DNA from: an uncultured bacterium
GTDB taxonomy: Bacteria; Omnitrophota; Omnitrophia; Omnitrophales; Aquincolibacteriaceae
Assembly (NCBI GenBank): GCA_964373045.1
Contig: CAYJSI010000003.1
Location: 9,030-73,029 of the forward strand
Length of the DNA: 64,000 nucleotides
Reading direction: 5' to 3'
Below are positions 10,228 through 64,000 of the stretch, piece after piece (position 1 is the stretch's first letter; each line of letters begins with the position of its first letter). Made by a program: the position numbers and the translations under genes. The notes under the pieces are model-generated. The model saw nothing but the letters and a program-made list of their open reading frames with translations. It was not told where the DNA came from and made no database searches.

Positions 10228-10229
10228 CG

Positions 10230-12517
<2,288 letters not shown>

Positions 12518-42473: not shown

Positions 42474-44043
<1,570 letters not shown>

Positions 44044-44047
<4 letters not shown>

Positions 44048-45318
44048 ATCTTTTAATCCGGGGAGCGCTGCTGATTGATCCGAAGAATCGTCGCGAGGAA
44101 ATTTGTGATCTTCGCATCATGGAGGGACGAATCGCAGAGATGGGTAAGGGTCTTCAGAAGGGTTCAGAAGAAATCCTCGAGGCCAAGGGGGTGTGTCTTT
44201 TTCCCGGGCTTATCGATCTACATACCCACTTTCGCGAGCCTGGGTTTGAGGGCAAAGAAACCATTCTCACGGGGGCGCGCGCGGCTCTCAAAGGCGGATT
44301 CGTGGCTTCGGTTTCGATGCCGAACACAAATCCTCCCTGCGACAACCAGGGAATCATTGACATCATTATTCGAAAGTCGAAGGAAGTGCCTTACCACATC
44401 TTTCCGGCAGGGACGATCTCCAAGGGACGCGAGGGAAAAGAGCTCTCGGAGATGGCGGATCTAAAAAAAGTCGGCATTGTGGCCGTGACTGATGATGGGG
44501 ATTGGGTGGCCGATGCCCTTCTCATGCGTCGTGCCATGGAATATGCCTCCATGCTCGGGCTCATTGTGATGAGCCACTGCGAAGACAGGCGGCTTTCGGG
44601 GGGCGGGGTGATGAATGAAGGTTTGAGCTCCACCAAGCTCGGACTGGGGGGCATCCCGGGCACCAGTGAAGAAATCGCCGTGGCGCGTGACATCGAGCTG
44701 GCGCGTCTTACGGGCGCTCATCTTCACATCTGCCATGTCTCAACGGCGCGCTCTGTCGAGCTCATTCGAAGGGCGAAGGCCGAAAAAATTTTCGTGACGG
44801 CCGAAGTCACACCGCATCACCTCACGCTCCATGACGAAGCCGTCGAAGGCTACAACACCAACTATAAAATAAATCCACCGCTCCGTAGAGAAGAAGACGC
44901 TGGAGCCCTGCGGCAGGCCTTGAGAGAGGGGGTGATCGATTGCGTGGCCACGGATCACGCCCCGCACACCGATGAAGACAAAATGCTTGAGTTTGACGAT
45001 GCCCCCTTCGGGACCATCGGGCTTGAAACCGCGCTTGGTGTTATTTTGACGGAACTTCATCACAAAGAAAAATGGCCGCTTGCGGAAATTGTAAAAATAA
45101 TGTCAACGCGCCCGGCCGAGATTCTGGCTCTCGCGCAAGGATTCGGACAAATTGAAAAAGGGGCGGTGGCGAACCTCACCCTGGTGGACCCTCAAAAAGA
45201 ATGGACCGTGACGCAAAAAGAGCTCGAGTCAAAATCAAGAAACTCGTGCTTTATGAATCAAATCCTCAAGGGAAAAGTGGCGGCGACGATCTGCGCCGGA
45301 AAATTATGGAAATTCTAA
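44044..45318 (+). CDS. pyrC: Dihydroorotase
   Basis: Metal-binding [10 protein letters not shown]. Amidohydrolase fold motifs (VATDHAPH). Confidence 0.9.
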
Positions 45319-45319
45319 G

Positions 45320-46447
45320 ATGAAGGCCACCCTTGCGCTTGAAGACGGACTGGTTTTTGAAGGGGAGGGCTTTGGGGCCCAAGGGGAAATCTTTGGCGAA
45401 GTCGTTTTTAATACCTCGCTTACGGGTTACCAGGAAATCCTGACCGACCCGTCTTACAAAGGGCAGATCGTGGCCATGACCTATCCTCATATCGGCAATT
45501 ACGGGATCAATGCCGAAGACCGGGAGTCCCATCACCCCTGGGTGGAAGGCTTCGTCATTAAAGAATTAAGCCCGGTGGTGAGCAATCATCGATCCGAAGA
45601 AACGCTCGATGCTTACTTGAAGCGCCACGGCAAGATTGGGATTGAGGGCGTGGATACGCGAAAACTGGTGAAGCATCTCAGGGATCAGGGTGCGAAAAAA
45701 GGAATTCTTTCGACTCAAGAAAGCGACTCTAAGCGTCTTATCCAAAAGGCCAAGGATTCCGCCAGCATCGTGGGAATTGATCTCGTCAAAGACGTGACCT
45801 GCCAAAAGTCTTATGAATTTCGGGAAGCGATTCCCGCCGAGTTCGGGTGGGGGGAGCCCTCCAAGGCCGCCAAGCGAAGGAAAATTGTGGCACTCGATTG
45901 CGGCATCAAATTCAACATTCTGCGCAAACTCCACCAGCATGGTTTTGATGTCACGGTGGTTCCCGCTTTTACGGGTGCTAAGGAAATCTTAACGCTAACG
46001 CCAGATGGCGTCTTTCTCTCCAACGGTCCGGGAGACCCCGCCGCTGTCACTTATGTGGTTGAAACGGTGCGCCAATTGATCGGCCAAGTCCCCATCTTTG
46101 GTATTTGTCTCGGACACCAGATGCTCGGGCTTGCCCTCGGCGGGACGACTTCCAAACTCAAATTCGGCCACCGGGGCGGCAACCACCCCGTGATGGATCT
46201 TAAGACGAAAAAAATTGAGATCACCTCTCAAAATCACGGATTTGTTGTCGATCTTGAGTCCCTTTCCAAGGATGAAATTGAACTCACGCATATTAATTTA
46301 AATGACAAAACGCTCGAAGGCTTCAGGCACAAAAAATATCCCATTTTTTCCGTGCAGTATCACCCCGAAAACTCCCCCGGTCCCCATGACAGCGACTACC
46401 TCTTCAAGCGTTTTCATGAATTAATCGAGAAAGGAACGGATGCCTAA
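45320..46447 (+). CDS. carA: Carbamoyl-phosphate synthase small (glutaminase) subunit
   Basis: N-terminal [16 protein letters not shown]. GATase triad region [15 protein letters not shown]...YHPE. Confidence 0.93.
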
Positions 46448-49400: not shown

Positions 49401-49757
49401 GGATATCCTCTCGTGGCCACCAAGGGAACGGGCGAGGTGCTTCAAAGGCATGGCGTTCCTGCCGAAATCGTTTTAAAGATTGTGGAGGGACGTCCGAACG
49501 TCGCAGATCTTATCCGCAACCGCGAGATCGGTCTCATCATCAATACTCCGAGCGGAAAAGGGCCGGTCTTAGATGAAGTCAAGATCCGTTCGCTCGCCGT
49601 TTCCTTCAATATCTCCTGCATTACAACAATCAGCGCCGCAAAGGCCGCTACCGTGGGGCTTGAGGCTGTCCGGGGCAAGGGCCTCGGCGTCAAAGCCATT
49701 CAGGATTATCATCCATGTACGACCCAACCGTCACGATCGACGATAACCGCAAAGTAA
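46440..49757 (+). CDS. carB: Carbamoyl-phosphate synthase large subunit
   Basis: Duplicated ATP-grasp halves ([25 protein letters not shown]... and [25 protein letters not shown]...). MGS-like C-terminal domain. 1105 aa. Confidence 0.95.
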
Positions 49758-50485
49758 ACGGAAAATACTTCAAACTCATTTTCCGCTCGAAGCCTCTTTC
49801 CCGCAAGGTCGAGCCCGGCCAGTTCATGAATGTTCAGTTGAAAGACTCACTCGATCCTTTTTTAAGGCGGCCCTTCAGTTATTACCGTGTTCTGAGGAGT
49901 CAAATCGAAATTCTTTATGAAGTTCTGGGCCACGGCACAAGTATTCTCGCGGGTTTAAAAAAAGGAGACCCCTTAAAAGTTTTAGGACCTTTGGGAAAGC
50001 CTTTTGCCAAAAAAATTCCTAAAGGAAAAAAAAGGGTGCTTGTGGCCGGGGGGGTGGGGGTCCCGCCGCTTGTTTTTTTAGCTGAACGTATTCCGGCCGA
50101 TTACCTTCTGATCGGCACGAAATCCAAACAGGAAGTCCTTCCCAAAAAGGAGCTCTCAAAGGCCAAAGCCGAGATTCTTTACTCCACCAACGATGGCTCT
50201 TACGGAACCAAAGGTTTTGTCACGGCTTTGCTCGAAAAGATCATTAAAGAAAACGGCGCCGGGAATCTTTTCATTCAAACCTGCGGGCCGGATATCATGA
50301 TGCAGGCCGTGATCAAGATTGCGCGCCGTGAGGGGATTGACGGCGAGGCCTCGCTCGATGAAACCATGGCCTGCGGTGTCGGCGCTTGCCTGGGGTGCAT
50401 GGTGAAGACCCAAGATCGCGGCTGGGTGCCCTCCTGCACCGAAGGACCTGTGTTTTCGTTTGGTGAGTTAGACAATAGTCCATAG
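49715..50485 (+). CDS. pyrK: Dihydroorotate dehydrogenase electron-transfer subunit
   Basis: FAD-binding RRPFSY. 2Fe-2S cysteines [11 protein letters not shown]...C at the C-terminus. 43-nt overlap with carB. Its last codons and TAG stop (50483-50485) lie inside a heptamer-repeat array. Confidence 0.85.
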
Positions 50486-50499
50486 ACCATAGTCGATAG
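50477..50499 (+). repeat. Left heptamer array (GTCCATAG-ACCATAG-TCGATAG) bounding the inserted four-helix-bundle element
   Basis: agtccatagaccatagtcgatag. Same heptamer family as the right array 50870-50898 and as the two 117-nt repeats in the giant 3' ORF. Confidence 0.7.
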
Positions 50500-50513
50500 A
50501 AAAGGGCGAAAGC

Positions 50514-50865
50514 ATGGCTTTCAAATTTGAAAATTTAGAAGTTTGGAAAAAGGCTTTAGAGTTGAGCTTTCAAGTGCATCAACTGACTAGGACATTTCCA
50601 AAAGAAGAATTGTATGTATTGAGTTCACAAATCCAACGAGCAGCAGATTCTGCAGTATTGAATATCGCAGAAGGAAGTACAACGCAAAGCAATTCTGAGT
50701 TTAAGCAGTTTCTGAGGTATGCATTGCGTTCCACGGTTGAAGTGGTTGCCTGCCTTTATCTGGGGAAAAAGAAGAAACCTTATCGAACAAGTAGATTTTG
50801 ATCGTCTTTATGTTCAGGCAGAAGAAGTTGCCAAGATGATTCAAGGGTTGCGTAAATCTCTTTAG
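50514..50865 (+). pseudogene. Four-helix-bundle protein gene (TIGR02436 / 23S-rRNA-intervening-sequence-protein family) with a +1 frameshift in an A-run
   Basis: Frame 0 gives MAFKFENLEVWKKALELSFQVHQLTRTFPKEELYVLSSQIQRAADSAVLNIAEGSTTQSNSEFKQFLRYALRSTVEVVACLYLGKKKKPYRTSRF*. After ggggaaaaagaagaaa (~50763-50778) the +1 frame continues NLIEQVDFDRLYVQAEEVAKMIQGLRKSL*, which is the expected family C-terminus. Extra A in the homopolymer, or a sequencing error. Confidence 0.75.
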
Positions 50866-50869
50866 TTTG

Positions 50870-50898
50870 CTATGGACTATGGTCTATCGACTATGGAC
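50870..50898 (+). repeat. Right heptamer array (CTATGGA-CTATGGT-CTATCGA-CTATGGAC), inverted relative to the left array
   Basis: ctatggactatggtctatcgactatggac, immediately before the pyrD ATG (50904). Confidence 0.7.
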
Positions 50899-50903
50899 TC
50901 AAC

Positions 50904-51848
50904 ATGAAAACGGATCTCACGACCACGATCAAGAACCTGACATTTCGAAATCCGATGACGGTGGCCTCGGGGACCTTTGGAACAAAAGGTGAGTTCGAAA
51001 AAGTGGTGAATTATGGGAAATTAGGCGCCATCATCACAAAAACGATTACCGTCAAGCCGCGCGCTGGAAACCCCATGCCCCGTATTTGTGAAACCGCGGG
51101 CGGGATGCTCAATGCCATCGGCCTGCAAAATAAAGGCCTCGATGATTTTATCGAAAACAAAATCCCTTACTTTGCTAAAATCGATACGCCTTTGATCGTG
51201 AACATTGCCGGAGAAACGCTCAAAGATTTTAGAACGCTCACAAAAGCTCTCGATCGAGAAAAGCCGGTCGTAAAAGCGCTTGAGCTGAATCTCTCCTGCC
51301 CGAATGTGGAAAGCGGCGGTGTGAATTCCATGAAAAAGCGGGAGCGCATTCTGGATGTGATCAACACGGTTAAATCCGAAACGGATTTAACCGTGTTTGC
51401 CAAGCTTTCGCCGGAACTTGGAGACGTGGTTGAAATCGCAGGGGATGTCATCAAAGCCGGAGCCGACGGCCTTAGTTTGATCAATACCCTGAAAGGAATT
51501 GCCATTGATGTTCATAAGCGAGTTCCCCGGATTTCGAATATCACAGGAGGATTGAGCGGCCCTGCCATCAAACCCGTGGCGCTTCGTTACGTTTACGAAG
51601 TGAAAAAACATCACAAAGTGCCGGTGATTGCTTCCGGCGGGATCATGAATGCTCAGGATGCAGTCGAATTTCTCATTGCAGGAGCCGATCTCCTTGCGAT
51701 CGGGACTGCCAATTTCGTCAATCCACGCGCAACCCTCGATATTCTGGAGGGGATTCAGGATTATTGCAAAGAAAAGAAGATTTGCGTGATCGACGAGCTT
51801 CGCGGCACACTCAACGTGTCGCACGGTTTCCATGAAGGAGTGATTTAA
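50904..51848 (+). CDS. pyrD: Dihydroorotate dehydrogenase catalytic subunit (class 1B)
   Basis: FRNPMTVASGTFG, NLSCPN, GGI..AQDAVEFLIAGA motifs. Confidence 0.9.
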   Translation: MKTDLTTTIKNLTFRNPMTVASGTFGTKGEFEKVVNYGKLGAIITKTITVKPRAGNPMPRICETAGGMLNAIGLQNKGLDDFIENKIPYFAKIDTPLIVNIAGETLKDFRTLTKALDREKPVVKALELNLSCPNVESGGVNSMKKRERILDVINTVKSETDLTVFAKLSPELGDVVEIAGDVIKAGADGLSLINTLKGIAIDVHKRVPRISNITGGLSGPAIKPVALRYVYEVKKHHKVPVIASGGIMNAQDAVEFLIAGADLLAIGTANFVNPRATLDILEGIQDYCKEKKICVIDELRGTLNVSHGFHEGVI

Positions 51849-52609
51849 TGACAAAGGTGCCAGAATCTCATTCTCAGAACCCGTCACCTGTCACCCGTGA
51901 CCCGAAACCTCAGTCTAAACTAATCGTTGCACTCGATACGGCAAGTCTTGAAGTTGCGAAAGAACTCATCGAGAAATTGAAGGGCGTCGTTTCTTTTTAT
52001 AAAATTGGTTTTGAACTTTTTACCGCACACGGCTGGAAGGCCGTGGAACTTGTGAAGCGCTCGGGCGCCCGCGTTTTTCTCGACCTCAAATTCCATGATA
52101 TTCCGAATACCGTGGCCAAAACGGCGTCTGTGATTGCCGCTCACGAGATTGACATGTTCAATGTGCATGCCCTCGGAGGCTTTGAGATGATGGAAGCGGC
52201 ACGCAAAGCGGTGGACGATGCCGTGAAGGGGAAAAAGAAAAAGCCCATTCTTTTAGCGGTAACGGTTCTTACAAGTCACAGCGAGGAAGATCTTGAAGCG
52301 ATGGGCATTGAAGGCAATCTCAAGGACGAAGTGCTGACCCTCGCCTGGCTTGCTAAAAAAGCCGGAATGGACGGCGTCGTCAGCTCTCCCCAGGAGATCA
52401 CGCTCCTACGCAATGAATTCCCGAAAGACTTCACGATTGTGACGCCTGGGATTCGCCCTGCTTACACCGCAAAAGGGGATCAAAAACGCACCTTCGGACC
52501 CAAAGAGGCCTTTGTCGCCGGGGCCGATTTTATTGTCGTGGGCCGCCCCATTACAGCCGCTCCGGACCCCCGCAGCGAGGCCATAGCGATCCAAAGCACA
52601 CTGAAGTAG
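51848..52609 (+). CDS. pyrF: Orotidine-5'-phosphate decarboxylase
   Basis: LIVALD...FYKIGFELF...VFLDLKFHDIPNTV motifs. Overlaps the pyrD stop. Confidence 0.9.
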   Translation: MTKVPESHSQNPSPVTRDPKPQSKLIVALDTASLEVAKELIEKLKGVVSFYKIGFELFTAHGWKAVELVKRSGARVFLDLKFHDIPNTVAKTASVIAAHEIDMFNVHALGGFEMMEAARKAVDDAVKGKKKKPILLAVTVLTSHSEEDLEAMGIEGNLKDEVLTLAWLAKKAGMDGVVSSPQEITLLRNEFPKDFTIVTPGIRPAYTAKGDQKRTFGPKEAFVAGADFIVVGRPITAAPDPRSEAIAIQSTLK

Positions 52610-52626
52610 GCCCGCGGGGAAGACAA

Positions 52627-52663
52627 CGGGGCCAGGTGGGGGCCAGGCCCCCCCCTGGCCCCG
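52627..52663 (+). terminator. GC-rich hairpin downstream of pyrF (possible terminator or processing site; no U-tract)
   Basis: cggggccagg-[tgggggccaggcccccc]-cctggccccg. 10-bp perfect stem with a structured loop. Confidence 0.35.
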
Positions 52664-52780
52664 ATGGCCTCGAGAGGTTTAATTTTGCTAGTTTGAATTA
52701 GTGATTACTCCAAAAAGGAATCGCTTGATCCAAATTACCCGTTCCCCTTTTTTATTCCTCGTTTTTTTAGGCCCGTTTCC

Positions 52781-52809
52781 TTGAAAAAGTGCAGATTGAA
52801 TGCTACACT
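52781..52809 (+). promoter_or_regulatory. Candidate sigma70 promoter TTGAAA-17-TACACT upstream of the giant 3' ORF
   Basis: TTGAAA 52781-52786, 17-nt spacer, TACACT 52804-52809. ~100 nt upstream of ATG 52908. Confidence 0.35.
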
Positions 52810-52907
52810 TTTTTCGATTTTACCATTCCACTAAAATTTCATTTCGTTAAAGGAAGCGCCGAACAAGGGGGATTGTGTTAGCCTATCTTAAGCCGATTAA
52901 AAAAGAG

Positions 52908-55900
52908 ATGAAAAAACAAATAAAATCCCTCACGGCCTCCCTCACCGTCCTCTGTTTTCTCGTCACTCAAATCGCCTCGGGCGCACCCTTCCTCTTCGCC
53001 TCACCCTATCGTGCCGAAATGGCTGCACAAAGGGAATTGATTCCTTTTCCCACCTTTGGGCTCAGCGTCCCTTCCGATCTGGGCGTGATCGATTATCTTC
53101 ATCGGGGTTCCGGCCCGGTTCTTCTGCATATTCAAACCGCCCACGGCCACTACGACGCTCAGAAAAAAATCGAAGCCCTACTTTACTATCTCAAGAAGGC
53201 CTACGGCATTCAGGATCTTTTCATCGAAGGGACGGCGGTCAAAATCCAGCCGGAACTTCTGCGTTTTTTCCCTGATGACAAGGAGCTCAATCGTGAAGTT
53301 CTTGACGGGCTCACGCGCCGGGCCTTTGTGAAGGGCTCTGAACTTTTTGCCGTGGACGAACCCGAAGCAAATCTCTATGGCATTGAGGAGCTCAAGTCCT
53401 ATCGCGTCAACAAATCCTCCTTTCGAGAGGTGCTCCGCGAGCAGGAGAAAACTGAGCGCTGGGTCAAAGAAATGGAAATGCAGATGGAGCGGCTCACCGG
53501 GCCTTATTTGAATAAGGAACTTCGAGCTTTTCTTAAGCGGATTGAGGACCACGAGGCCAATCGAATCGGCATGATGGACTGGCTCTCGATTCTAAAAGAA
53601 GAGGCCGAGAAACGCCTTGAGATCCGTCTGGCCGACCCCGCCTTTCAGCTTGACTGGCCTATGTTGGTGCGGGTCTTTAAACTCCGCGAACTCGATTCAA
53701 AATTGGATCCTCAGATTTACCCGAAAGAACGGGCCGAATTCCTTCGCTCGATCCGCCGTTTTCTCCCGGGCGCCCTCGCCCTTGAAATTCAAAAGGAGCT
53801 CATGCTCCCCCCCTCCGCTCAATCCCTTTCAGACCCTGGGACGAGTGAGCTCTTCCTTAAAATGGTGGAGCACCTTCCGCCGGGATTCCGTTATGACGCC
53901 TTTCCTCAGGTGAAATATTTCATCGGTCATTTAATTTTACAAAGTGAGCTCAAGGCCGAACGGCTTGTGAAGGAAGTGGAACAGGTTCAAGAGAAGATCC
54001 AAGCCAAGCTCGCCAAAACCCGTGAAGAAAAAGAACTCCTAGTACTTCTTCATGAGAAAAAACTTCTCACACGGCTTCTTCACCTTGAATTGACGCCGGG
54101 GGATTATGAAAAAATACGGGTCCCAGGTGCCGGGTCTCAGGTGCCAGGCTCTGTTCTTTCTGACACCCGACACCCGACACCCGTTACCCGTCACCTTCGT
54201 CCATCTTCCGTCGTTTCCCGTTTCCTTGCCGTGAACCGCGATCAGCGCGTTCGCAACGTCTCCTTCCGCCACTTAGAAGAAATCGACCGGCTTTACGAAA
54301 AGGCGCTTGAGTTTTACCGAGGCGCCAAAGAGCGTGATCAGTTCATGATAGACAATATCCTTCGGCTTATTCGGGATGAAAAGATTTCAAAAGCGGTTGT
54401 GATCACCGGAGGTTTCCACACCAAACCCTTCCAGGATTTTTTCACGAAAGAAAATTACCACTACGCCTCCATTTCTCCCAAGATTACCGAGATCGAACCC
54501 CGCGATGCCTATCTCCACGCCATTCTCCAGGATTCACCACTCACCAAGGCCTCCACACTTGAGGTGGACTCCATCGCAGTTCCAAAGGAGCAGCTTGTTC
54601 TTCACGGCACAAACTTTGAAATAGTGAATGGCATCGTGATGGGGGAACTCGAAACAGCGGCACGCAAAAAAGGAAAATGGAATGATTCAACCATTCAGGC
54701 TTTTGATCAAAGTGCTTATGCCAGGATAAACGGCGTACGGCTCAACCAAAATCTTTCTTTAGTTCCTCAAGCCCTTTCCCGGGCTGAGGTACGGAATATT
54801 GAGACAGAAGCAATTGAAGATGTTCAAGATTTTTATCAACTTCATTTTTTGGCTATGTTTTACGGCCATGAGTTTATACACCCTCAAGGGGATTCTCCGA
54901 GTCCGGCGAGTCTTGAAGATCAGGTTGACGCGTATAACTTTTGGATTACGCATTTTGAGCAGCGTAATTTATTCAACGGCACTCTTGCCGAAACCACTGC
55001 GGGGAGCAGAATAAGCGAAGAGCAATTTAATGCCCTCAAGGAATTTCTCCTGCGGACTTATCCTCGTCAAGGTAGTTTTCCTTCGTTGATTCACCGGTAT
55101 CTTATCGGTTTGGGTCAAAATCGTCTGGAGGAGGTGCTTGCGTTCATTGGCCAGGCAACGGTTCTGGAACAGCCCGAGGGTCGTCCCGGATTTTGGCGTG
55201 TCAATGGCGACTTAAAAAGTCAGAATAAAGCCATTGTTATTTGGGATGAAGGTACATCCATTCATTTCCGTGTGTTTTCGAGAGGGTCAGAACGCGAGAG
55301 TGATCAGGAATTTTTCTTTATTAATCCCGCTCATTTAGATGCTATTCGCAATGCGATAGAAGCAGCTTCTAGAGGAACCGTCCGAATTCCCCGCTCTGAG
55401 GTGAGGAAATTGGGCGAGGAGCAGGAGACGAGGCGGCCGATCAACCTGAGGGATGGCGGCGGTTTATATAGTACTGATAAATGGCTGCAATCCCGATCAT
55501 TACAGAGATTATGGTCATTGCTCCTAAGACTTCAGCCATGGTTTAACGCCCTCCTTTGGGGGGATAAAGAACCCACGCGACAACAAATCCGAGCGGTGGT
55601 TAATGCGAGCGCCGGCGGGAAAGATAATCCAGTAAGAGAATCCCGCCCATTATGGCCATCACAAAAAGAGCTGCACCATACAGCATCCAAATGGGGTGCA
55701 TCTCATCCTCCTTTTTTTGAATTCTTACGGTTAGCATTCAAACGAATAAATAAAAATAATCAGCCCACCCAGCATACAGCAACCGCCGAAAAAAATACTA
55801 GCATTAAATCCATCTCCTCTCAACAAGGGAATTACCAGCCCCGCCAAAATGACGGTATAAGTACTGACGCAAATTTTGACCAAATTTTCTCGGCGCTTGG

Positions 55901-58900
55901 CCGTCAATCTCAGCATCTCTTTTCCCTCATTAAAACCTTAAGTAAGCGTATTCTGAATTTTGTTATAAGTCAATTATTATTTTTAGTTAAATCAAATTTT
56001 AATTTACTGTCTTCGGGAGTGTGGGGGATGAGGACCCCCTTCCTTACCCCCGGCCTCTTACTCCCGGCCCCTGTTTCTTCTCGCTTGGATGCGCGGCGAA
56101 GTGAAGTGCGAACGGAAATTTTGGGGGTTCGGGCTTTAAGTTCGTTGGACCGTAGTGATATTGAGGCAGGACGTAAGGGCGGCGAGATCTTTTTTCTCAG
56201 CCAGCTTCCTCGTCAACAGAGGCCGACGGATCAACAACTCATCAATCAAATCATCTGGGGGTGGCCCGCCTTCCGGGAAAACATTCTTCCTGAAATTCAT
56301 GAGAGGTTTTTAGAGCTCAATCGGTTATTGTGGTCTAACAGAAGTGTCCTTGCAAAGGATCCCGAGTTCCGAGCGTTTCTTGGATATTTTGCGGAGCGCC
56401 TGGCAAGAAGGAATTTTCTCCAAACCCCCCTTGAAGAAATATCCGGTCGAACCGAAAAGCAAGTTCTCAGAGCTTATCATCAATTCGTAACCATCAAAGA
56501 TCGCATCCTTTCGCGCTCAGAAATGCGAACCTCGAGGCAGCTTCAAGGAGAAATTGATTATTTTTTCAGAATGAAGGAAGAAGCCCGGTCTCGTGCGGAT
56601 TTGATGGAACGCATGCTGAGTGAAATTAAAATTATCCTCGAGGGAGGACGCGGGTTAAAACAGGCAGGGCGAACTCAAGAAGCGCTGGATGTCTTAGAAA
56701 TTCTTCGCAGCTACGCCGATAGACTTACGAAGTTTGCCGAAAAAATTGGGCCTGAGAAAAAATACTTTCCTCGTGGAGTCTCTCGGGAAGAGTTGCAAAA
56801 ATGGCGCGCTGAAGAGGAAGCGAGGGACGGGAATATTTTACCCGAAGCAAGCGCCGCCGATTTAAAAGCCCGATCCGCAGATCTCAAAAAACGAATCGAT
56901 GCCTTTCTTCCTCAATTCATAGAGGCCTACCGCCCGGATAATGAGCGGAAACTCGACCGTTTGAATCATCAGGTTCTGGCCCTTCATAAAGCCCGAATCA
57001 AAGTCCAGCTCTTGCAGGCCCGTCATTACCTTTTGAAATCCTCTCCCAACGAAGGAGTTCTCTCTAACCTTTTGAATTCGCTCAGGTCAAGCTACATGCG
57101 GCTGCAACAGGAATATTGGTGGCGCTGGAAGCGCTCAGTCCGTAGCGCTGAGATTCAACAAGTTGCCGTTGTCGGTCACGAAGGCCGTACTGTTCGAACC
57201 TATGATTATTCCCAATTTAAGCTGAGGGTGAAGACTGCAAAAGATGCAGACGAGGATTCCGAAAATGTTTTAATCCAAAATCGGTGGAAATTAATCGTGC
57301 AACCCGATGGTTCAAAAGTGCATCAACTCGTTCCGACCGAAATTCATTTTTCAAGTTTAGATACAACGCTTCGGGCTTCCTTGAATACGCTCATCAGCCA
57401 GGAAGAAGATTACGGACAGGTCTTGTTTAGAGTGACGGCACTTGAATACGTTGTTGAGATCCTCAAAGAAGCCGTCAAGAACGGGACAGAACGTATTTCG
57501 AATTTCCAACAGGAAATTATCAATGCGAATTTAAGAGATGTTTTAGAAGGAAAAGGCGGACTTCGTGCCGGGATCACACCGCAAAAGGAAAATGCAACGG
57601 CCAAAGTCGAGGAAGCGATTGTGCATATGAAGGCCGGAAAATTTTCCAAGGCTAGTGAAGTGCTTGAAGACGCGATCAAAAGACTTCGGAGCCGATTAAC
57701 CGATATCGAGGGGAAAAATAAGGGGATACGCCATATCACGGATTATGTTGCCCATGAACTTCGAAAAGAAGAAACCGGCAGGGCGATTCGGGAAGTTAAA
57801 ACATTAGTGGCCCAGAATGATTTTCCATCAGCCTCAGAACTTTTAACGCAGCTCTACCAAGCCAATTATCGACCGATCGCCTCAAGGCACGGACAATATG
57901 AGTCTCTTAAGCGCGAAGTTTTAGCGCTCAAAATCAATATTACTCAATTGCAACGCTTTCACGGAAAACCATCGGAAGTAGACTTAAGAAAATCCATTTT
58001 CGAAAACATTCGCCGCATTTCAAATATGACGGGTGTTCGTTCCGAGCTGCGGCGGCAGACCAAGCACAGAGCAAAGAGCATGCCTGCCCGCCGAAGCGAA
58101 GCTGCAGGCGGGGAGCGTAGAGTTAACCTTATGCCCTCTGCCAGCCCTCTGCCCGTTTCCCGCTCCAAGTCGCGTGAACGCTCAGAGGTAAGAGTCACTT
58201 CGCCTGATTTTGAGGCCAAAGCGAAGCGTCATGCTGCTGAGTATGCAGTCATGACTACGCACAGATCCTCGGACGATGAAAGTTTTCTCCCCGATTGGCT
58301 GAAGAAACTAGGGGATGTTTTTTTGGTTCGAGATCGAATGCCGCGAAGAGAAGATAAGCAATTAGCAGCGGAGAGGATTAACAGAGTACCGCGTCTATCA
58401 TCCTCCGGTAAGTTCCTCGATCTCCGTAAACCCGCATCGGATTATCTGGATGAGATAGCTTCCCGTCTTTTATTCGGGGATAACACGCCTCCTCAAACCC
58501 GCGAAGGATGGCAGGGCTTGATTTTGGACGTTGCCGCTCCAACGCTCGTCCGTCAAACGGCTTTTGCGGCGTTCGAAAAAGCAAATCCCGATTTATTTCC
58601 TCCGTCCGTGCGCATTGAAATATCGGTCCGGGATATCAATAAAGTTCCAGCCGACGGCATGATTGTGGAAACCGATTCTCATCTTCTCGGAACCCCGGGA
58701 ATGTTCCTTCGCTCGCTCGAGCTTTCTCCGGAAGGCGATGTTCCGAACATTTCCGACTGGCGCGATCAATCTAAGAATCATGAACCGGGATCAGTTGTGA
58801 TTTCTCCGTCTTTAGCTCAAGCGAAGGAGAAAACCATTGCCGGATGGAAATATGCGCTTGGCGCCATTGTGCGTTCCACGGATGAACAGCCTCTTGATGA

Positions 58901-61900
58901 AAAGATTTATAAAGCCGCGCTCAGAAAAGCACTGGAACAAGCCGACCGTTTAGGATTGGAAACCGTCACGCTGAATCATCCCGCAGCTTTGACTTGGGCC
59001 ACTACCGTGATCCGGCAATTTTCAAAGCAAAAGCGTCTTCATTTAAAATCTGTAAACATTGTTTTTTTTACGGAAAAAGATTACAACACCTCCCTTCAAT
59101 TCACTTCCCGTTCCGAGGCGAGAGAAAGGCAGTCGATAGTCGATAGTCGACGGTCCATAGCAAACCCAGTAGTTAATCCATGGGCTATAGACTCTCTTCT
59201 ATTGACTAACCCCCGCTCCGAGCTGCGACGGCCTGAGAAAAACGAAGGCCGCGCAGCCGTCCCGCGTTCAGAAGCGCGGGGCGAGGTGCGGAAGAAGAAT
59301 CAAATCAATTTTGATTTGGAACGTGAGAAGCGGAAAATACAAGAAACAAAAGAACAGTTCGGCTCGACTTTACCTTGGATGGATAAGCAGAATTTTATTC
59401 TGGATTTCTTGGTCCGGGATGCGCTTCCTATTTTTGGAAATGTTTTTCAAGGTGGCCGCCGCGCGGCACTAAGGAGAATTAACGAGGGAAGCAAAAATAA
59501 AGCAGACACGTCTCCCGTTACGAACTACGACCCTTTAATTGAAGGAAAATTTCGGGATGCGGTTGATGGGGCCTTCCCTGGTCACGGTGTCTTGGGGGAA
59601 GAACTTGCTGATCGGAACAGGCTTCGTCCTCAAACGTTTACGTCAGATCCGATTGATGGAACAGTGGACTGGAAAATACTAGGTTCGCACTTTGGAAACC
59701 TGAGCGGATATTACGACAGCATTCATACCAACGGTGAGCCGCAAGTTGCAGTCGGGTATTGGCCTCTTCTGGATATGGATGGTTCGGGCTCCATGCTTTT
59801 TGTCGGCCGCGAAGACCAAGATGGAATTCTTGTTAATGGAAAGAGAGTTGAGCGTGCCGCGATCGAAGCCATCAATCAAAGCCGCACGGTCATTATTGGA
59901 GGCAGAAGCAAGCCCAAGACGCGGCAGCTTTTAAAAGAATATTTTGAAAAACGAGGCATGATGGTGAAATTTACAAGCGCCGGCGGAGGAGAGTCCGCTG
60001 AGATGATGCTTCGTGGCACGGCACGGTTTTATATCCATCTCAATCCCGCGGCAGTCGATGCGCCTATCGGCACTTTTTTTGCTAAAAAACTTGGATTGAA
60101 AGCCACAGATCGCGAAGGCAATCCCGTAAAGGTTCCTTTTAACTATCTTCAAAATGGACTCTATTTTCACCCTTATATCATCGGATCAAACGAATCGCAC
60201 CAGGAAGCGCTAGAAGCCTTTGCCGCCATCGGAGAACCGGAAGAAGACGTCCAATGGACCCCCCTTGAAAGAAAAGCGGCTCCGGCTGATTTGATTGATC
60301 ATTTAACCCAGGAGTCGGCTCAAAGAGCGCGCCGGCTGCTTCCTCAGGATCCGGGAGTTTCCAAGAAAAAAGAAATTAAAAAGCGAGAGCTCAAACAACT
60401 TTTAGAAAGAACGGTAGCTCTAGTCGCCGAGACCGCCAGCTTGGACATGGAACGGCTGCTGAACAGTCTCATTGAAGGAGTCACGTTCAAAAAAGTTATT
60501 CCCCAGGTGGTTAAACGGGCGGTCAGCGCGTACTCCAAGAAAAAAGCGTTAGGGCAGTCGGTGATTGTTGCTCAGGCCGGAACTCCGGGAGCAGGGAAAT
60601 CCGTTGGTGGAAAATATTTAGCCGAAGCCATTGCTCGGGCCATTCAAAAGAAGTTTCCTAAAGAAAAAGTCATCGTTCCTGTTTTGAAAGAAGATAACAT
60701 TGCTTTGATCCAAAGAAATCTTCGCGGCAAAGGCTTGGCCGGAAAATTTAAATGGGCTGAACGTGACCTTGCTCTTGCGGATCTTGTCAGCGGCCAATCG
60801 GTACTTAAAGGCATCTTTGATGATACGAGCGGCGGAAACGTCCTTCTTTCTCTTGACCCGGAAGGCAATGTGGTCATTCATAACGGCAATCGGACCGTGA
60901 CCATTCGGCATAAAGCCGGCAGCGAGGTTTTTTCTTACGACGAAGTTTTGAGTCGTCCAAACGAACCTCCATTGAATCTAACAGAGGAGCAAAAACGCAA
61001 TCATATCAACATTCAGGATAGCGGAATTTTTGAGTGCGGTTCCACAAAAGTACGCATTCGAATCGAAGGAAAAGGTACAAGTGCACGGCTTATTGTTGGT
61101 TTTCAAAGTTTAGAAATCGTATCGCTCAATGAATACGGTGAACTGGAAATGCTGACACAGCTAACCGATCATGAGATTGAACCGGTTACCGGAGGCAGGG
61201 CAACCGTAAAGGCGCGCTCTCCTTTAGGAGATCTCCCTTCCTATTTAAATGAAGCGTCGGTTTTTCAGATCGAAACCGTTCAGAATCCTCAAAAAGTCGA
61301 GGACCTCCGTAAAGCTAAAGAAGCCAGAGAATTTGTCCCTTCCGGTACACCCCTTGTCTTTGACGGCCAGTTTGCATTTTTAAGGCTTAATGAAAAAGGT
61401 GGTTTTTCTCCGGATGTTCATCTCTATGACGTTACGCTGAATTATCGGGCGAATCGAATGACGCGCTGGGCAAGAGATCTTAAGCGAAGTCGTGAGCGCG
61501 GAAGAACAACGGCAGAAGCCAATGAAAACGCTCAACGGTTTTACGAAAGAGCTTTTACGGAAGAAGAACGCTCGAATCGGGCCAACGCGGAATTCGGGAT
61601 TCAGGTCAATACGACAGACCTTGCCGAATCTCTTGAACGTTTGATCCTCTATCATTTTGAACAGCAGTCCGCCTACAGTGAAATCTGGGCTCAGATGGGC
61701 ATTGATCCCAAAACCATTGATGAAGAGCAGCGCCGGGAAAATGATCTTCCCGAAACTTTGAAACTGTTGGCTCTCTGGAAAAATTTGAAATTCAAGCGAA
61801 CATTAAACGGAACCATCGACGAGTATGAAATCGGAGATTTTATCATCCGCGTAGAGAGGAGCGCTCCGTCACTTTCTAAAATCCATCGGGGACAAAATCA

Positions 61901-64000
61901 AAAACTTAAAGAGCGCGGTAATGAAGTGATTGCAAGTAACTCACTGATCGATGTGCGGCAAGCGGGAAAAATTTTGGGAAAACCCATTCGTTTTACGGGC
62001 ATCAAGGGTGGTCAGCTGGGATGGATTTCCGTATGGAACAGAGGCGAGCTTTTGGGAGACCGGCTCAACAAATTAGCAGCTCAGGGAGATGCTGAAAGTC
62101 TGAATGAGGGAATAAAATGGATTGATCATTTTGTTGATCAGGAAGCAGCGCTTCACAAGCGCGGAATTGTGGATGAAGATCCGGATATGATGGAACAGCG
62201 CCGGCTTTTACCGATTCGCGGAGAAGTGAGCGTGGCTGTGGCAAGTCCCGAATCCAACCTTCGGATGGGCGGGGAAGCCCTTCGGCTTTATCGCGAGAAG
62301 TATCTTCCTGCCGCGGATCAAACTAATATCTATCTGCGTCAGGAAAAGTTGGATAAAATTCCCGCAGTATTTCGTGACTATTATAAGAAACGTGTTTCGA
62401 AGAAGTTGCTTCCGCATTCTGTCTCGGATGAAACTTCTCGAAATGAAGCATGGGAAGCTTTTTTCAAGGATGTTTTTGAAACAGCGCTTCCAAATTCCCT
62501 TCGAACTGTACAAAAAGATCTGCCCGCCGTCTTACAAACCGTTTCAAAACGAAAAGATGTCATGCGGGAACACAAAATTCCGCTTCGTAATTGGGGAGTA
62601 GAACACCCCGCCATTTACCACAAGCGGATTGAACATATGCGCGGGTATGTCACTCGCTATTTCATTCGAAGCGCCAAACGACAATATTTCCCCGCCATTC
62701 AAAGCAAATCGGCGACTCCCCAGCTTTTGTGGGTTGCCTTGATGCGCCAAACTTATCCGGATAAATATGCGGATTTTTATCAAATGATCCGGGTTTTAGC
62801 AGATGAAATGTTAGACAAACCCTTTCTCTTAGACGCGACCCGCTACCCAGCTTACAAACAGAATGCGGCGGTGCGCAGCCTTATTAGCGAAAAACTTGCC
62901 GAACCTTACCGTCAGGCGGGAATTGAACCTCCGCCGATTGACGCTGCCGCATGGGCATCCTTTGATTATTTTCTGAATCAAACACGGTCTCTTGCCGCCC
63001 GCTCAGAAGTGCGGAATGCGACATGGATTCCAAGTCCCGATGGCGAAGGACCTGGCCATGTGGTATCAGGCTCAGTTCCTGAGTCGGGGGGAGTGCGCAC
63101 TCCCGGCGAAGATGCCGTTCCTGCTCCTTCGCACGAAACGCAATTATGGCCGGAAGAAAGAAAATCTAAATCCGGACCCGGACACCCTGTGTCTGTTGCA
63201 CCTCTCATTCCAAGTCCTAAAGGACCCTTGGATACCGGTGGCGGCATTGTCTCCAAAGAAGATCTCTCCTCTTCCCGGGCTGAGGTAAGAGACGAGGCGA
63301 GAGAAAGGCAGTCGATAGTCGATAGTCGACGGTCCATGGAAAACCCAGTAGTTAATCCATGGGCTATAGACTCTCTTCTATTGACTAACCCCCGCTCCGA
63401 GCTGCGACGGAATGCCCGCTCGGCAGGGATGACACGCAGAAATTTCCTGATAGGGAGTGGGGCTACGCTTGCACTCACGGGGTTTGCGGCCCCGCAGTCT
63501 GTAGTGAAGTTCGCAGCGGCCAGTTCGCCGCCCAACCAGAAAAAATCTGCAGAGACGGATCAAGAAATCGAAAAGAAATTCATCGAGTGGCGCAAGGCCG
63601 CAGAAAAAGCCTTTCTCGAAAGATTTCCCTTGGATGAAAAAATCGAGAAAAAACAAATGCTGACTGATGACGAAAAGAAACAGTATCTGGAGCTCAGAAA
63701 GAAAACCCGTGAACTCAGTCTCCTGATGATGTACGCCTCCTACCGTCTCCAGGAAAGAGAAGATAAACGGCTTGAAAATAGAATCCTGGAGGATCTGACG
63801 AATTCTCTCGATTTAAAATCAAAGAACAAGCAAAAGCGGTATTACACGGCTGCCACTCTCGAGCAACTGGGGTATTTTTATCACAGTATAAAATTGCGGG
63901 ATTTTCTCATCCGTGTCGCTCAGGATACCAAGCTGGATGCCCTCTATCGTGATAGAGCTGTCGATGGGCTCGCTCTCATGATCGCGACTTATTGGAACAC
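52908..64000 (+). CDS. Giant modular secreted protein, 5' portion (more than 3,697 codons; continues beyond the window). Segments: Sec signal; TraB/GumN/Tiki-like module; low-complexity linkers; macro-like domain; inositol-monophosphatase-fold domain; P-loop kinase-like domain; internal Tat-type signal peptide.
   Basis: Every codon in the frame (positions congruent to 0 mod 3) from 52851 to 64000 was checked by hand and none is TAA, TAG or TGA. The nearest upstream stop is TAA 52848-52850. First ATG is 52908. N-terminus MKKQIKSLTASLTVLCFLVTQIASGA. Motifs seen: LLHIQTAHG / VITGGFHTKPF (TraB-like), VRDINKVPADGMIVETDSHLLGTPG..LGLETVTLNHPAALTWA (macro-like), GVLGEELADRN + DPIDGT (IMPase fold), VIVAQAGTPGAGKS (Walker A). 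Not in the supplied track, presumably because it has no in-window stop. Confidence 0.8.
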   Translation, partial: MKKQIKSLTASLTVLCFLVTQIASGAPFLFASPYRAEMAAQRELIPFPTFGLSVPSDLGVIDYLHRGSGPVLLHIQTAHGHYDAQKKIEALLYYLKKAYGIQDLFIEGTAVKIQPELLRFFPDDKELNREVLDGLTRRAFVKGSELFAVDEPEANLYGIEELKSYRVNKSSFREVLREQEKTERWVKEMEMQMERLTGPYLNKELRAFLKRIEDHEANRIGMMDWLSILKEEAEKRLEIRLADPAFQLDWPMLVRVFKLRELDSKLDPQIYPKERAEFLRSIRRFLPGALALEIQKELMLPPSAQSLSDPGTSELFLKMVEHLPPGFRYDAFPQVKYFIGHLILQSELKAERLVKEVEQVQEKIQAKLAKTREEKELLVLLHEKKLLTRLLHLELTPGDYEKIRVPGAGSQVPGSVLSDTRHPTPVTRHLRPSSVVSRFLAVNRDQRVRNVSFRHLEEIDRLYEKALEFYRGAKERDQFMIDNILRLIRDEKISKAVVITGGFHTKPFQDFFTKENYHYASISPKITEIEPRDAYLHAILQDSPLTKASTLEVDSIAVPKEQLVLHGTNFEIVNGIVMGELETAARKKGKWNDSTIQAFDQSAYARINGVRLNQNLSLVPQALSRAEVRNIETEAIEDVQDFYQLHFLAMFYGHEFIHPQGDSPSPASLEDQVDAYNFWITHFEQRNLFNGTLAETTAGSRISEEQFNALKEFLLRTYPRQGSFPSLIHRYLIGLGQNRLEEVLAFIGQATVLEQPEGRPGFWRVNGDLKSQNKAIVIWDEGTSIHFRVFSRGSERESDQEFFFINPAHLDAIRNAIEAASRGTVRIPRSEVRKLGEEQETRRPINLRDGGGLYSTDKWLQSRSLQRLWSLLLRLQPWFNALLWGDKEPTRQQIRAVVNASAGGKDNPVRESRPLWPSQKELHHTASKWGASHPPFFEFLRLAFKRINKNNQPTQHTATAEKNTSIKSISSQQGNYQPRQNDGISTDANFDQIFSALGRQSQHLFSLIKTLSKRILNFVISQLLFLVKSNFNLLSSGVWGMRTPFLTPGLLLPAPVSSRLDARRSEVRTEILGVRALSSLDRSDIEAGRKGGEIFFLSQLPRQQRPTDQQLINQIIWGWPAFRENILPEIHERFLELNRLLWSNRSVLAKDPEFRAFLGYFAERLARRNFLQTPLEEISGRTEKQVLRAYHQFVTIKDRILSRSEMRTSRQLQGEIDYFFRMKEEARSRADLMERMLSEIKIILEGGRGLKQAGRTQEALDVLEILRSYADRLTKFAEKIGPEKKYFPRGVSREELQKWRAEEEARDGNILPEASAADLKARSADLKKRIDAFLPQFIEAYRPDNERKLDRLNHQVLALHKARIKVQLLQARHYLLKSSPNEGVLSNLLNSLRSSYMRLQQEYWWRWKRSVRSAEIQQVAVVGHEGRTVRTYDYSQFKLRVKTAKDADEDSENVLIQNRWKLIVQPDGSKVHQLVPTEIHFSSLDTTLRASLNTLISQEEDYGQVLFRVTALEYVVEILKEAVKNGTERISNFQQEIINANLRDVLEGKGGLRAGITPQKENATAKVEEAIVHMKAGKFSKASEVLEDAIKRLRSRLTDIEGKNKGIRHITDYVAHELRKEETGRAIREVKTLVAQNDFPSASELLTQLYQANYRPIASRHGQYESLKREVLALKINITQLQRFHGKPSEVDLRKSIFENIRRISNMTGVRSELRRQTKHRAKSMPARRSEAAGGERRVNLMPSASPLPVSRSKSRERSEVRVTSPDFEAKAKRHAAEYAVMTTHRSSDDESFLPDWLKKLGDVFLVRDRMPRREDKQLAAERINRVPRLSSSGKFLDLRKPASDYLDEIASRLLFGDNTPPQTREGWQGLILDVAAPTLVRQTAFAAFEKANPDLFPPSVRIEISVRDINKVPADGMIVETDSHLLGTPGMFLRSLELSPEGDVPNISDWRDQSKNHEPGSVVISPSLAQAKEKTIAGWKYALGAIVRSTDEQPLDEKIYKAALRKALEQADRLGLETVTLNHPAALTWATTVIRQFSKQKRLHLKSVNIVFFTEKDYNTSLQFTSRSEARERQSIVDSRRSIANPVVNPWAIDSLLLTNPRSELRRPEKNEGRAAVPRSEARGEVRKKNQINFDLEREKRKIQETKEQFGSTLPWMDKQNFILDFLVRDALPIFGNVFQGGRRAALRRINEGSKNKADTSPVTNYDPLIEGKFRDAVDGAFPGHGVLGEELADRNRLRPQTFTSDPIDGTVDWKILGSHFGNLSGYYDSIHTNGEPQVAVGYWPLLDMDGSGSMLFVGREDQDGILVNGKRVERAAIEAINQSRTVIIGGRSKPKTRQLLKEYFEKRGMMVKFTSAGGGESAEMMLRGTARFYIHLNPAAVDAPIGTFFAKKLGLKATDREGNPVKVPFNYLQNGLYFHPYIIGSNESHQEALEAFAAIGEPEEDVQWTPLERKAAPADLIDHLTQESAQRARRLLPQDPGVSKKKEIKKRELKQLLERTVALVAETASLDMERLLNSLIEGVTFKKVIPQVVKRAVSAYSKKKALGQSVIVAQAGTPGAGKSVGGKYLAEAIARAIQKKFPKEKVIVPVLKEDNIALIQRNLRGKGLAGKFKWAERDLALADLVSGQSVLKGIFDDTSGGNVLLSLDPEGNVVIHNGNRTVTIRHKAGSEVFSYDEVLSRPNEPPLNLTEEQKRNHINIQDSGIFECGSTKVRIRIEGKGTSARLIVGFQSLEIVSLNEYGELEMLTQLTDHEIEPVTGGRATVKARSPLGDLPSYLNEASVFQIETVQNPQKVEDLRKAKEAREFVPSGTPLVFDGQFAFLRLNEKGGFSPDVHLYDVTLNYRANRMTRWARDLKRSRERGRTTAEANENAQRFYERAFTEEERSNRANAEFGIQVNTTDLAESLERLILYHFEQQSAYSEIWAQMGIDPKTIDEEQRRENDLPETLKLLALWKNLKFKRTLNGTIDEYEIGDFIIRVERSAPSLSKIHRGQNQKLKERGNEVIASNSLIDVRQAGKILGKPIRFTGIKGGQLGWISVWNRGELLGDRLNKLAAQGDAESLNEGIKWIDHFVDQEAALHKRGIVDEDPDMMEQRRLLPIRGEVSVAVASPESNLRMGGEALRLYREKYLPAADQTNIYLRQEKLDKIPAVFRDYYKKRVSKKLLPHSVSDETSRNEAWEAFFKDVFETALPNSLRTVQKDLPAVLQTVSKRKDVMREHKIPLRNWGVEHPAIYHKRIEHMRGYVTRYFIRSAKRQYFPAIQSKSATPQLLWVALMRQTYPDKYADFYQMIRVLADEMLDKPFLLDATRYPAYKQNAAVRSLISEKLAEPYRQAGIEPPPIDAAAWASFDYFLNQTRSLAARSEVRNATWIPSPDGEGPGHVVSGSVPESGGVRTPGEDAVPAPSHETQLWPEERKSKSGPGHPVSVAPLIPSPKGPLDTGGGIVSKEDLSSSRAEVRDEARERQSIVDSRRSMENPVVNPWAIDSLLLTNPRSELRRNARSAGMTRRNFLIGSGATLALTGFAAPQSVVKFAAASSPPNQKKSAETDQEIEKKFIEWRKAAEKAFLERFPLDEKIEKKQMLTDDEKKQYLELRKKTRELSLLMMYASYRLQEREDKRLENRILEDLTNSLDLKSKNKQKRYYTAATLEQLGYFYHSIKLRDFLIRVAQDTKLDALYRDRAVDGLALMIATYWN
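59115..59231 (+). repeat. 117-nt in-frame repeat element, copy 1 (encodes EARERQSIVDSRRSIANPVVNPWAIDSLLLTNPRSELRR)
   Basis: 115/117 identical to copy 2. Contains a direct heptamer array TCGATAG-TCGATAG-TCGACGG-TCCATAG and inverted CTATAGA/CTATTGA units. Flanking sequence is unrelated between copies. Confidence 0.85.
63294..63410 (+). repeat. 117-nt in-frame repeat element, copy 2
   Basis: Same as copy 1 apart from two substitutions (ccatagc to ccatgga). Ends 20 nt before the internal Tat-like signal (ATG 63430). Confidence 0.85.

Follow-up and report, generated by a model that had tools for sequence, protein, structure and literature searches.

The question raised by this locus is how a peptide with the features of a twin-arginine translocation (Tat) signal comes to lie deep inside a very long open reading frame (ORF), and whether that frame yields a single chain or many products. 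We analyzed a 64,000-nt stretch of DNA from an uncultured Omnitrophota bacterium (contig CAYJSI010000003.1; this whole stretch is called the window, and coordinates are those of the window). The original prediction, made from the letters alone, had placed a Tat-like peptide about 3,500 codons into a stop-free frame that opens with a Sec signal, and we confirmed this arrangement, with the peptide 3,526 codons in. The frame is open from 52851, the codon directly after a TAA at 52848-52850, to the end of the window, giving 3,716 codons without a stop, which is a lower bound since the frame runs off the window end. The ORF starts at ATG 52908, and its N-terminus, MKKQIKSLTASLTVLCFLVTQIASGAP, resembles a Sec signal or signal-anchor. 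An independent Logan assembly (L001) matches window positions 49227-59143 with 6 mismatches and covers the first 6.2 kb of the ORF, also stop-free. We consider it on balance probable that the ORF is an Omnitrophota multi-enzyme giant gene of polyprotein type, whose product would be cut after the last Arg of a short peptide, called here the junction motif, that recurs between its units. The features from which the question arises are these.

52908..64000, + strand: giant ORF, putatively of polyprotein type; at least 3,697 codons from ATG 52908, running off the window end
52908..52994, + strand: N-terminal signal or signal-anchor MKKQIKSLTASLTVLCFLVTQIASGAPFL; homologues begin likewise
63429..63527, + strand: Tat-type signal peptide MTRRNFLIGSGATLALTGFAAPQSVVKFAAASS, by residue pattern and by sub-threshold matches to Tat hidden Markov models (HMMs)

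The same prediction had noted a recurring RSE(V/L)R-like motif, and this was borne out by 12 copies, two beyond those it had listed, with its coordinates off by 0-6 nt. A search with R[SA]E[VLAM]R found the 12 copies in the giant ORF frame and 2 matches in all other frames of the 64 kb. By comparison, 20,000 residue shuffles of the ORF gave a mean of 0.086 copies and a maximum of 3, and the strict form RSE[VL]R is present in 7 copies versus 0.026 expected from such shuffles. Thus, of the checks suggested with the prediction, the comparison with shuffled sequence revealed strong enrichment, and the motif was also found to be conserved in homologues, where it stands at module boundaries. Codon use differs from copy to copy in the window, with CGC, CGG, CGA or CGT for the first Arg, TCN or AGT for Ser, GAG or GAA for Glu, and CGN or AGR for the last Arg. 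Because the codons vary synonymously among the 12 copies, we take the peptide to be the conserved entity in this genome. The junctions, all from the motif scan, are as follows.

54780..54794, + strand: junction RAEVR
55392..55406, + strand: junction RSEVR
56097..56111, + strand: junction RSEVR (Ser encoded by AGT)
56514..56528, + strand: junction RSEMR
58038..58052, + strand: junction RSELR
58179..58193, + strand: junction RSEVR
59109..59123, + strand: junction RSEAR
59214..59228, + strand: junction RSELR, within copy A of a 118-nt repeat
59265..59279, + strand: junction RSEAR
63000..63014, + strand: junction RSEVR; homology to all relatives ends exactly here (motif scan and homologues)
63276..63290, + strand: junction RAEVR
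63393..63407, + strand: junction RSELR, 7 codons before the Met of the Tat-like peptide

To place the window ORF among its relatives (given below by our own labels, L or P with a number), we scanned metagenomes with an alignment of homologues of the first module of the ORF. This gave 24 loci with ORFs of 1.5-4 thousand residues or more, and the same architecture was present in more than 20 independent contigs. Across the family (30 proteins, 51,854 residues) we counted 112 motifs versus 2.2 expected. In most larger giants the motif is among the commonest 4-mers, taking the form RAEVR in L005, L012 and L015, RSEAR in L009 and L010, and RSEVR in L008 and L011. Pro, Ser or Ala stands before the junction; at P1', 46% of sites have Ser, Ala or Thr, and acidic residues follow. 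Spacing from motif to motif ranges from 16 to 1,537 residues. At 6 family junctions the residue at +1 is Met, which has a background frequency of 1.6%.

The form of the junction follows the lineage. Relatives whose N-terminal module is 38-49% identical use RAEVR, RSEAR or RSEVR. The peptide between units, [P/S/A]-R-[S/A]-E-[V/L/A]-R, is conserved in the family; in distant lineages it is swapped for other short peptides at the same boundaries. P0002 and P0003 each contain 15-16 copies of ARLA ([G/A]ARLA) versus 0.38 expected, L029 also uses [G/A]ARLA, and P0006 uses DAAML. The motif is lineage-specific in the manner of viral polyprotein sites. Two family ORFs are interrupted (L005 at 12052-12054, L006 at ~1981-2104), one by a single in-frame stop and one by a frameshift; in both, junction-bearing sequence continues downstream. 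Sequencing error, decay or a true split of the gene may account for either.

A profile-free, exhaustive HMMER search with the last 1,200 residues of the window protein matched 17 proteins, the best of which are giants of 4,195-7,620 residues. In all 17, homology is confined to a kinase-like block and ends exactly at RSEVR 63000; this search, a word-indexed search and JGI metagenomes gave no match to the linker, the 118-nt repeat or the Tat module. Neither the 118-nt repeat nor the inositol-monophosphatase and kinase block turned up in GTDB species genomes. The block, which combines an inositol-monophosphatase-like domain with a kinase-like domain, occupies residues 2162-3364 of the window protein, between RSEAR (2120) and RSEVR (3365). 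In P0003 (2736-3912) and P0002 (403-1579) the same block has ARLA 11 residues before it and 5 after it, and in P0004 (1,575 aa) it is present without a junction motif. The modules between the later junctions of the window are these.

58194..59108, + strand: cargo module that weakly matches a macro domain (ADP-ribosyl hydrolase; NCBIfam NF001662, E 3.4e-5)
59114..59231, + strand: 118-nt direct repeat, copy A, from a repeat search; encodes the 35-aa spacer ERQSIVDSRRSIANPVVNPWAIDSLLLTNP-RSELR
59280..62999, + strand: cargo module, inositol-monophosphatase-like (PF00459, E 4e-10), P-loop nucleoside-kinase-like (NCBIfam kinase) and a conserved unknown domain seen in homologues
63015..63275, + strand: Pro/Gly/Ser-rich linker with no coding-bias signal (codon-bias scoring)
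63293..63410, + strand: second copy (B) of the 118-nt direct repeat, with 98% identity to copy A
63528..64000, + strand: helical module after the Tat-type signal; start of the module only, cut by the window end

The units between motifs are whole, self-contained proteins. In L005, the match to CsrA (PF02599, E 7e-21) begins at profile position 1, with the protein's own Met, immediately past RAEVR. In L009, RSEAR stands on both sides of a hexokinase (residues 1919-2328) and likewise of an acyl carrier protein (2353-2417). Cargo is nearly all different among giants with the same first module, and the units that are shared are bounded by junctions in both giants; compared with 20 such giants, the window ORF has no common cargo beyond the first module. 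Among members that end in a stop (P0018, L007, L010, L012, L017, P0002 and P0003), the last module ends ...SA or ...AA after an amphipathic stretch.

Codon-bias scoring backs the ORF frame across most of the giant ORF. At 55250-56400 (the longest such stretch, 1.2 kb), ~58000-58400, 59000-59300 and 62900-63350, none of the six frames shows a codon-bias signal, yet the ORF frame is stop-free. Because these bias-less stretches stay open, they point to selection for read-through or continuous translation. Their appearance is that of decayed cargo or of spacers whose frame is maintained solely to let translation reach the units downstream.

We next consider the Tat-like peptide itself. Its ATG is at 63429 and not at 63430, as had been stated, since the frame of 63430 is closed; the peptide itself stood. 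It reads M-T-R-R-N-F-L-I at 63429-63452 and also fits the pattern RR.[FLVIAM][LIVMF]. The h-region has 14 residues and is rich in G, A, T and L, and a Lys in the c-region is followed by an AAA↓S site. The best 12-residue Kyte-Doolittle mean within the uncharged run NFLIGSGATLALTGFAAPQSVV is 1.61; K and then AAA↓SS come after this run. As encoded, the peptide is not N-terminal; it would become so only after cleavage at RSELR 63393-63407. A second RRNFL pentapeptide lies near 56400, in an earlier module (protein ...AERLARRNFLQTPLEE...), with no hydrophobic region after it, and is probably a coincidence.

Signals that follow junctions are not peculiar to the window. The Tat-type pattern has 4 matches in the family, and 3 of the 4 (window, L008 and L021) sit 8-12 residues past a junction (p = 3.6e-4). 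L019 carries RSEFR-NLD-RREFLGASAAAL, a Tat-like signal after a junction-like peptide. In L008 the Tat-pattern signal heads an MdoG/OpgD-type periplasmic glucan protein (PF04349, 34.6 bits versus a cut-off of 25); members of this family are truly exported, and E. coli OpgD is a Tat substrate. Other classes of signal occur in the same place. L009 has a lipoprotein-like signal five residues past RAEVR, and in P0018, L007 and P0002 the last module opens with a Sec-like signal past the junction (76% identical there between P0018 and L007, the others weakly similar). Because signals follow junctions in relatives, the embedded Tat signal of the window is one case of a recurrent layout, in which native N-terminal features of captured genes (start Mets; Tat, Sec and lipoprotein-type signals) stand directly past the junction. 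The window ORF has two hydrophobic segments, each with positive charges on its N-terminal side and with no transmembrane segment between them. Because both favor an N-in orientation, which is impossible for one chain, they are hard to reconcile with a single uncleaved product.

If the chain is cut, an enzyme is needed, and the module that begins the ORF offers a candidate.

52908..54779, + strand: conserved first module, with a hydrolase fold like that of TIKI/Ere/ChaN/TraB proteins that contains a large helical insertion; in this module H-I-Q-T-A-H, I-E-G and G-G-F-H are invariant

Homologues of this module are 36-49% identical to it; the only named one, at 44%, is a protein of a 'Candidatus Omnitrophica bacterium' metagenome-assembled genome. 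The module gave no match in Pfam and no match by sequence in the PDB, and its link to solved structures comes from a fold search, in which it showed an alpha/beta fold around a parallel sheet and matched a TraB protein (9.6), the erythromycin esterase EreC (9.3), HopBA1 (9.3), ChaN (9.0) and the MARTX endopeptidase RRSP (7.7). In 22 homologues, among them those of the distant ARLA lineage, three elements never vary: HxQxAH, (L/F/V)EG about 30 residues on, and GG(F/Y)H after that. The TIKI family is characterized by a His-Glu pair plus a second His (PMC6254334). The first His and the Glu of the module are spaced in sequence as in Bcr135 and RRSP, and would be the counterparts of that pair. In L028, L029 and the P0029 contig the module stands as a gene of its own, and a giant multi-enzyme gene begins 18-119 nt downstream of it. 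Since the module is fused to the giant gene in one lineage and adjacent to it in another, a functional link between the two is indicated. In the separate-gene cases the positions are 10001-11587 for L028, with the giant from 11605 onward, and 1071-3368 for L029, with the giant from 3393 onward; those giants carry their own signal peptide.

The overall architecture is therefore that of a signal-anchored TIKI/Ere-like module followed by a variable run of unrelated, self-contained units. On the reading we favor, each junction would be a site-specific proteolytic processing site, cut after its last Arg, and cutting would free the units as separate proteins. The unit starting RNARSAGMTRRNFL... would thereby gain a genuine N-terminal twin-arginine signal, and the first module, by its predicted fold, would be the leading candidate for the processing protease. 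We infer cleavage because the site behaves like those of viruses, native N termini and targeting signals follow it, the N-in topology conflicts with one chain, and a TIKI-like module is associated with it. One of the two explanations first offered for the locus, a polyprotein released at RSE(V/L)R-like sites, is thus favored as regards motifs at boundaries, whole proteins between them and signals after them; the release itself is the part that we infer. A tentative and rather doubtful extension is that some Omnitrophota express sets of complete genes, virus-like, as one chain; the sets would comprise regulators such as CsrA, carrier proteins, sugar kinases, and periplasmic enzymes bearing Tat, Sec or lipoprotein signals. 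A TIKI-fold protease, supplied by the first module or by the upstream gene, would cut this chain at a lineage-specific site of five residues, and the fragments would be routed singly, including by Tat. Cutting and routing could occur in a prey or host cell, with the giant injected as a mixture of effectors that would exploit the export machinery of the victim. Such routing is conceivable because the chain opens with a secretion signal while the cargo is of cytoplasmic type.

Several results weigh against cleavage and post-cleavage export. The motif, h-region and AxA site that had led to the description of a textbook Tat signal are all present, but the curated HMM thresholds are not reached: Tat models are the top matches, at 15.1-15.5 bits versus 16.7 for TIGR01409 and 15.6-15.8 versus 22.7 for PF10518. 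No TatA-like motif was found in the 64-kb window or in the fetched loci, and no tat genes in the window. Homologues of the helical module after the signal were absent from a word-indexed search, an exhaustive HMMER search (1.84 billion representatives), JGI metagenomes and Pfam. The enrichment of generic signal-like segments in the 45 residues past junctions is modest, about 2-fold (9/43 versus 9.9% expected, p = 0.02). The scheme is also not universal. Short junction motifs were not evident in P0001 or the L028 giant, and P0006, P0001 and the L028 giant lack either the first module at the start or a clear motif. The first module need not be a protease, as the TIKI superfamily also includes esterases and haem binders. 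Furthermore, its signal or anchor predicts a periplasmic location, yet CsrA, kinases and Tat substrates would need processing in the cytoplasm. Finally, codon identity among junctions exceeds what peptide selection alone predicts, a point taken up below.

A possible, if doubtful, alternative is that the product remains an uncleaved giant multidomain chain, in which the junction is punctuation or a linker (a docking motif, a translational pause or a folding spacer) and the Tat-like and other hydrophobic segments are internal anchors or relics of gene capture. The general prediction for Omnitrophota giants, a membrane-anchored protein with numerous internal transmembrane helices, fits this explanation, as do the sub-threshold Tat scores. 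In addition, the bias toward GAG-GTG-CGG, which is Shine-Dalgarno-like and ends in a rare-type Arg codon, could mean pausing at domain boundaries. However, a passive linker fails to explain why five residues are fixed within a lineage and swapped wholesale between lineages. It also leaves unexplained the clustering of Tat-pattern signals past junctions and the CsrA that keeps its own Met right past the motif. In the intertwined dimer that CsrA forms, the N-terminal strand belongs to the fold. The N-in orientation favored by both hydrophobic segments of the window argues in the same direction.

We regard it as improbable that the junction works primarily at the nucleotide level, as a 15-nt site or scar of in-frame cassette capture or recombination or as an RNA signal, with the peptide incidental. 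The observations that speak for it are nevertheless substantive. Within some genomes (L011, L005, L012 and L015) the 15-mers are near-identical, third positions included. Six of the 8 junction copies in L011 are identical (CGCTCCGAAGTGCGG) and the other two differ at one third-codon position; in L005, L012 and L015 the 15-mer is mostly CGCGCCGAGGTGCGG. Family-wide codon preference is also strong, the first Arg being CGC in 61% and the last CGG in 59% of sites versus a background of 22%. The cargo of related giants differs nearly completely, with differences beginning at junctions, and a junction-bearing 118-nt cassette is duplicated in the window at 98% identity. The codon identity suggests recent copy-paste spread of junctions or an added role at the DNA or RNA level. 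Against a purely nucleotide-level function, residues are kept in the window and in L029 despite free synonymous change, including the two-step exchanges AGR/CGN, AGT/TCN and TTG/CTN; in L029, AGR/CGN and TTG/CTN alternate among the nine GARLA copies. Moreover, with up to 2 mismatches allowed, every occurrence of the junction 15-mer is in one of these ORFs, on its coding strand and in its frame; the opposite strand, the other frames and ~190 kb of flanking DNA have none. Because of this synonymous variation and confinement to the coding frame, a purely nucleotide-level function is disfavored. A sequence of 15 nt with weak dyad symmetry is also short for known site-specific recombinases. In any case, a nucleotide-level role is compatible with a role of the peptide and does not exclude one. 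A reading of GAG-GTA-AGA as a splice site or Shine-Dalgarno sequence was rejected, as it is absent from half of the window copies and start codons rarely follow it.

The other explanation offered at the outset, several independently initiated cistrons kept in one frame with their stops lost, so that the Tat protein starts at its own ATG 63429, is not supported and seems to us very improbable. An ATG does stand ahead of the Tat motif, Met directly follows the six family junctions noted above, and the GAGGTG within the motif resembles a Shine-Dalgarno core. Most junctions, however, precede non-start codons (for Ser, Ala or Thr), and where an ATG does follow, GAGGTG is just 3 nt from it. No proper Shine-Dalgarno sequence precedes 63429, where 'ggcaggg' abuts the ATG, and none occurs consistently elsewhere. 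Promoter-like sites are not enriched over shuffles; terminator-like sites in the giant ORF are slightly above the shuffle mean. With stops absent, upstream ribosomes would read through regardless, and the maintenance of more than 11 kb free of stops, including 1.2 kb without coding bias, indicates selection for continuous translation.

The least probable explanation, that misassembly across the 118-nt repeat or decay into a pseudogene has created the frame and the Tat protein is not truly in the ORF, draws on the fact that the L001 contig breaks within repeat copy A, so that 59144-64000 rests on one assembly, but either repeat copy, placed before the Tat module, would connect it in frame to sequence free of stops, a junction followed by a Tat-like signal recurs deep in giant ORFs of the unrelated contigs L008, L019 and L021, and the architecture as a whole is found in the more than 20 independent contigs mentioned above.

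Having weighed these alternatives, we compared the polyprotein reading with known systems. Multi-enzyme giant ORFs have been described in Omnitrophota, and there cleavage was suspected with the cleavage points stated as unknown (West-Roberts et al. 2023, 10.1101/2023.11.21.568195; 2026 preprint, 10.64898/2026.06.07.730766); one of these two preprints suppresses internal signal-peptide calls as artefacts. The likeness is that of a very long ORF of unrelated metabolic and regulatory enzymes (HAD, hexokinase, PGM, kinases) with an N-terminal signal or transmembrane segment. The window ORF fits the class in its length, its inositol-monophosphatase-, kinase- and macro-like domains with unknown modules, and its N-terminal anchor, but it is at the small end (at least 3.7k aa versus 10-147k). 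In the published giant-ORF papers we found no mention of a recurring junction peptide, lineage-specific swap, whole genes with their own Met or TIKI-like first module. The original view that such a locus would be unusual for bacteria therefore has to be qualified as regards the giant ORF as such, whereas the junction motif and the signals trailing it appear undescribed; literature searches (RSEVR, RAEVR, bacterial polyprotein; full text for the motif strings) returned nothing relevant.

MARTX toxins share with the window ORF variable, recombining effector modules between more conserved terminal parts, and their effector RRSP is itself a TIKI-fold endopeptidase. In MARTX the modules are freed at short inter-module sites by a protease of the same chain, a step that for the giants we can only propose. 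The differences are that no RTX repeat or C80 cysteine-protease match was found by Pfam and NCBIfam in the window ORF, L005, L009 or L012, that the candidate enzyme here is TIKI/Ere-like and N-terminal, and that the cargo here extends to proteins of housekeeping type and to others that bring export signals of their own. The MARTX cut follows Leu, and the MARTX site is not lineage-specific in a comparable way.

With viral polyproteins (picornavirus and potyvirus, 3C/NIa-type), the likeness lies in complete proteins in one frame and a short consensus with a small P1' at the boundaries. There the consensus varies by lineage along with a cis-encoded enzyme; here the motif is lineage-specific and the enzyme a candidate. 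Unlike those systems, the ORF lies on a cellular bacterial chromosome beside a pyr operon, and the candidate enzyme has an unrelated fold. The peptide described here resembles canonical Tat signals (TIGR01409/PF10518) in its T-R-R-x-F-L motif, the weak hydrophobicity of its h-region, its basic c-region residue and its AxA-type site; it differs in its position within an ORF and in scores just under the cut-offs.

Whether one chain or many products are made is an explicit question for Omnitrophota giants, and the junction peptide supplies concrete candidate cut sites, as the TIKI-like first module supplies a candidate enzyme. The junctions also give a rule for dividing giants into units for annotation and structure prediction. 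If cleavage proves true, this would be a cellular, chromosomal polyprotein strategy with post-cleavage Tat, Sec and lipoprotein targeting; to our knowledge, comparable strategies are otherwise found mainly in viruses and a few toxins. A cut after Arg, as predicted, would be indistinguishable from trypsin digestion in trypsin-based proteomics.

Both copies of the 118-nt repeat are in frame, and their 35-aa spacer (ERQSIVDSRRS..NPVVNPWAIDSLLLTNP) is flanked by junction motifs, so if junctions are cut the repeat would free one small peptide twice. Rfam gave no family match at the repeat or the junctions. Folding of the repeat is modest as RNA (z = -2.5) and insignificant as DNA (z = +0.8), and the idea of a palindromic mobile element was dropped. 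Hairpin-forming, in-frame insertions are present inside the first module, at 54105-54225 in the window and at 5510-5610 and 5950-6050 in L002. Two of the insertions share one alignment position in different relatives; fold strength is z = -6.1 for L002 5510-5610 and z = -1.8 for the window copy. These hairpins resemble in-frame palindromic selfish elements. The Rickettsia palindromic elements, in-frame translated repeats, are presumably a parallel to the 118-nt repeat and to the hairpins of L002 and 54105-54225, with the difference that the 118-nt repeat is not significantly self-complementary as DNA and carries junction motifs.

Upstream of the giant ORF, the ORFs at 42531-52609 look like a pyrimidine biosynthesis cluster, and annotation of the Logan contig lists PF10418, PF01180 and PF00215 (pyrK, pyrD, pyrF). 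A GC-rich inverted repeat or hairpin at 52619-52671, terminator-like, closes this cluster, and the giant ORF then follows. A conserved protease gene in the neighborhood was considered and rejected, as upstream neighbors are common to subclades only and the window has none of them. Another very long ORF, at 2-7417 on the + strand (at least 2,471 aa, cut by the left end of the window), has no junction motif; with repeated Thr/Ser/Asn-rich beta-type units, coiled-coil-like segments and a C-terminal transmembrane helix, it looks like a surface adhesin. The window also contains a tRNA-Met (CAT anticodon) at 39690-39763 and a bacterial RNase P RNA of class A at 41960-42346 (184.7 bits).

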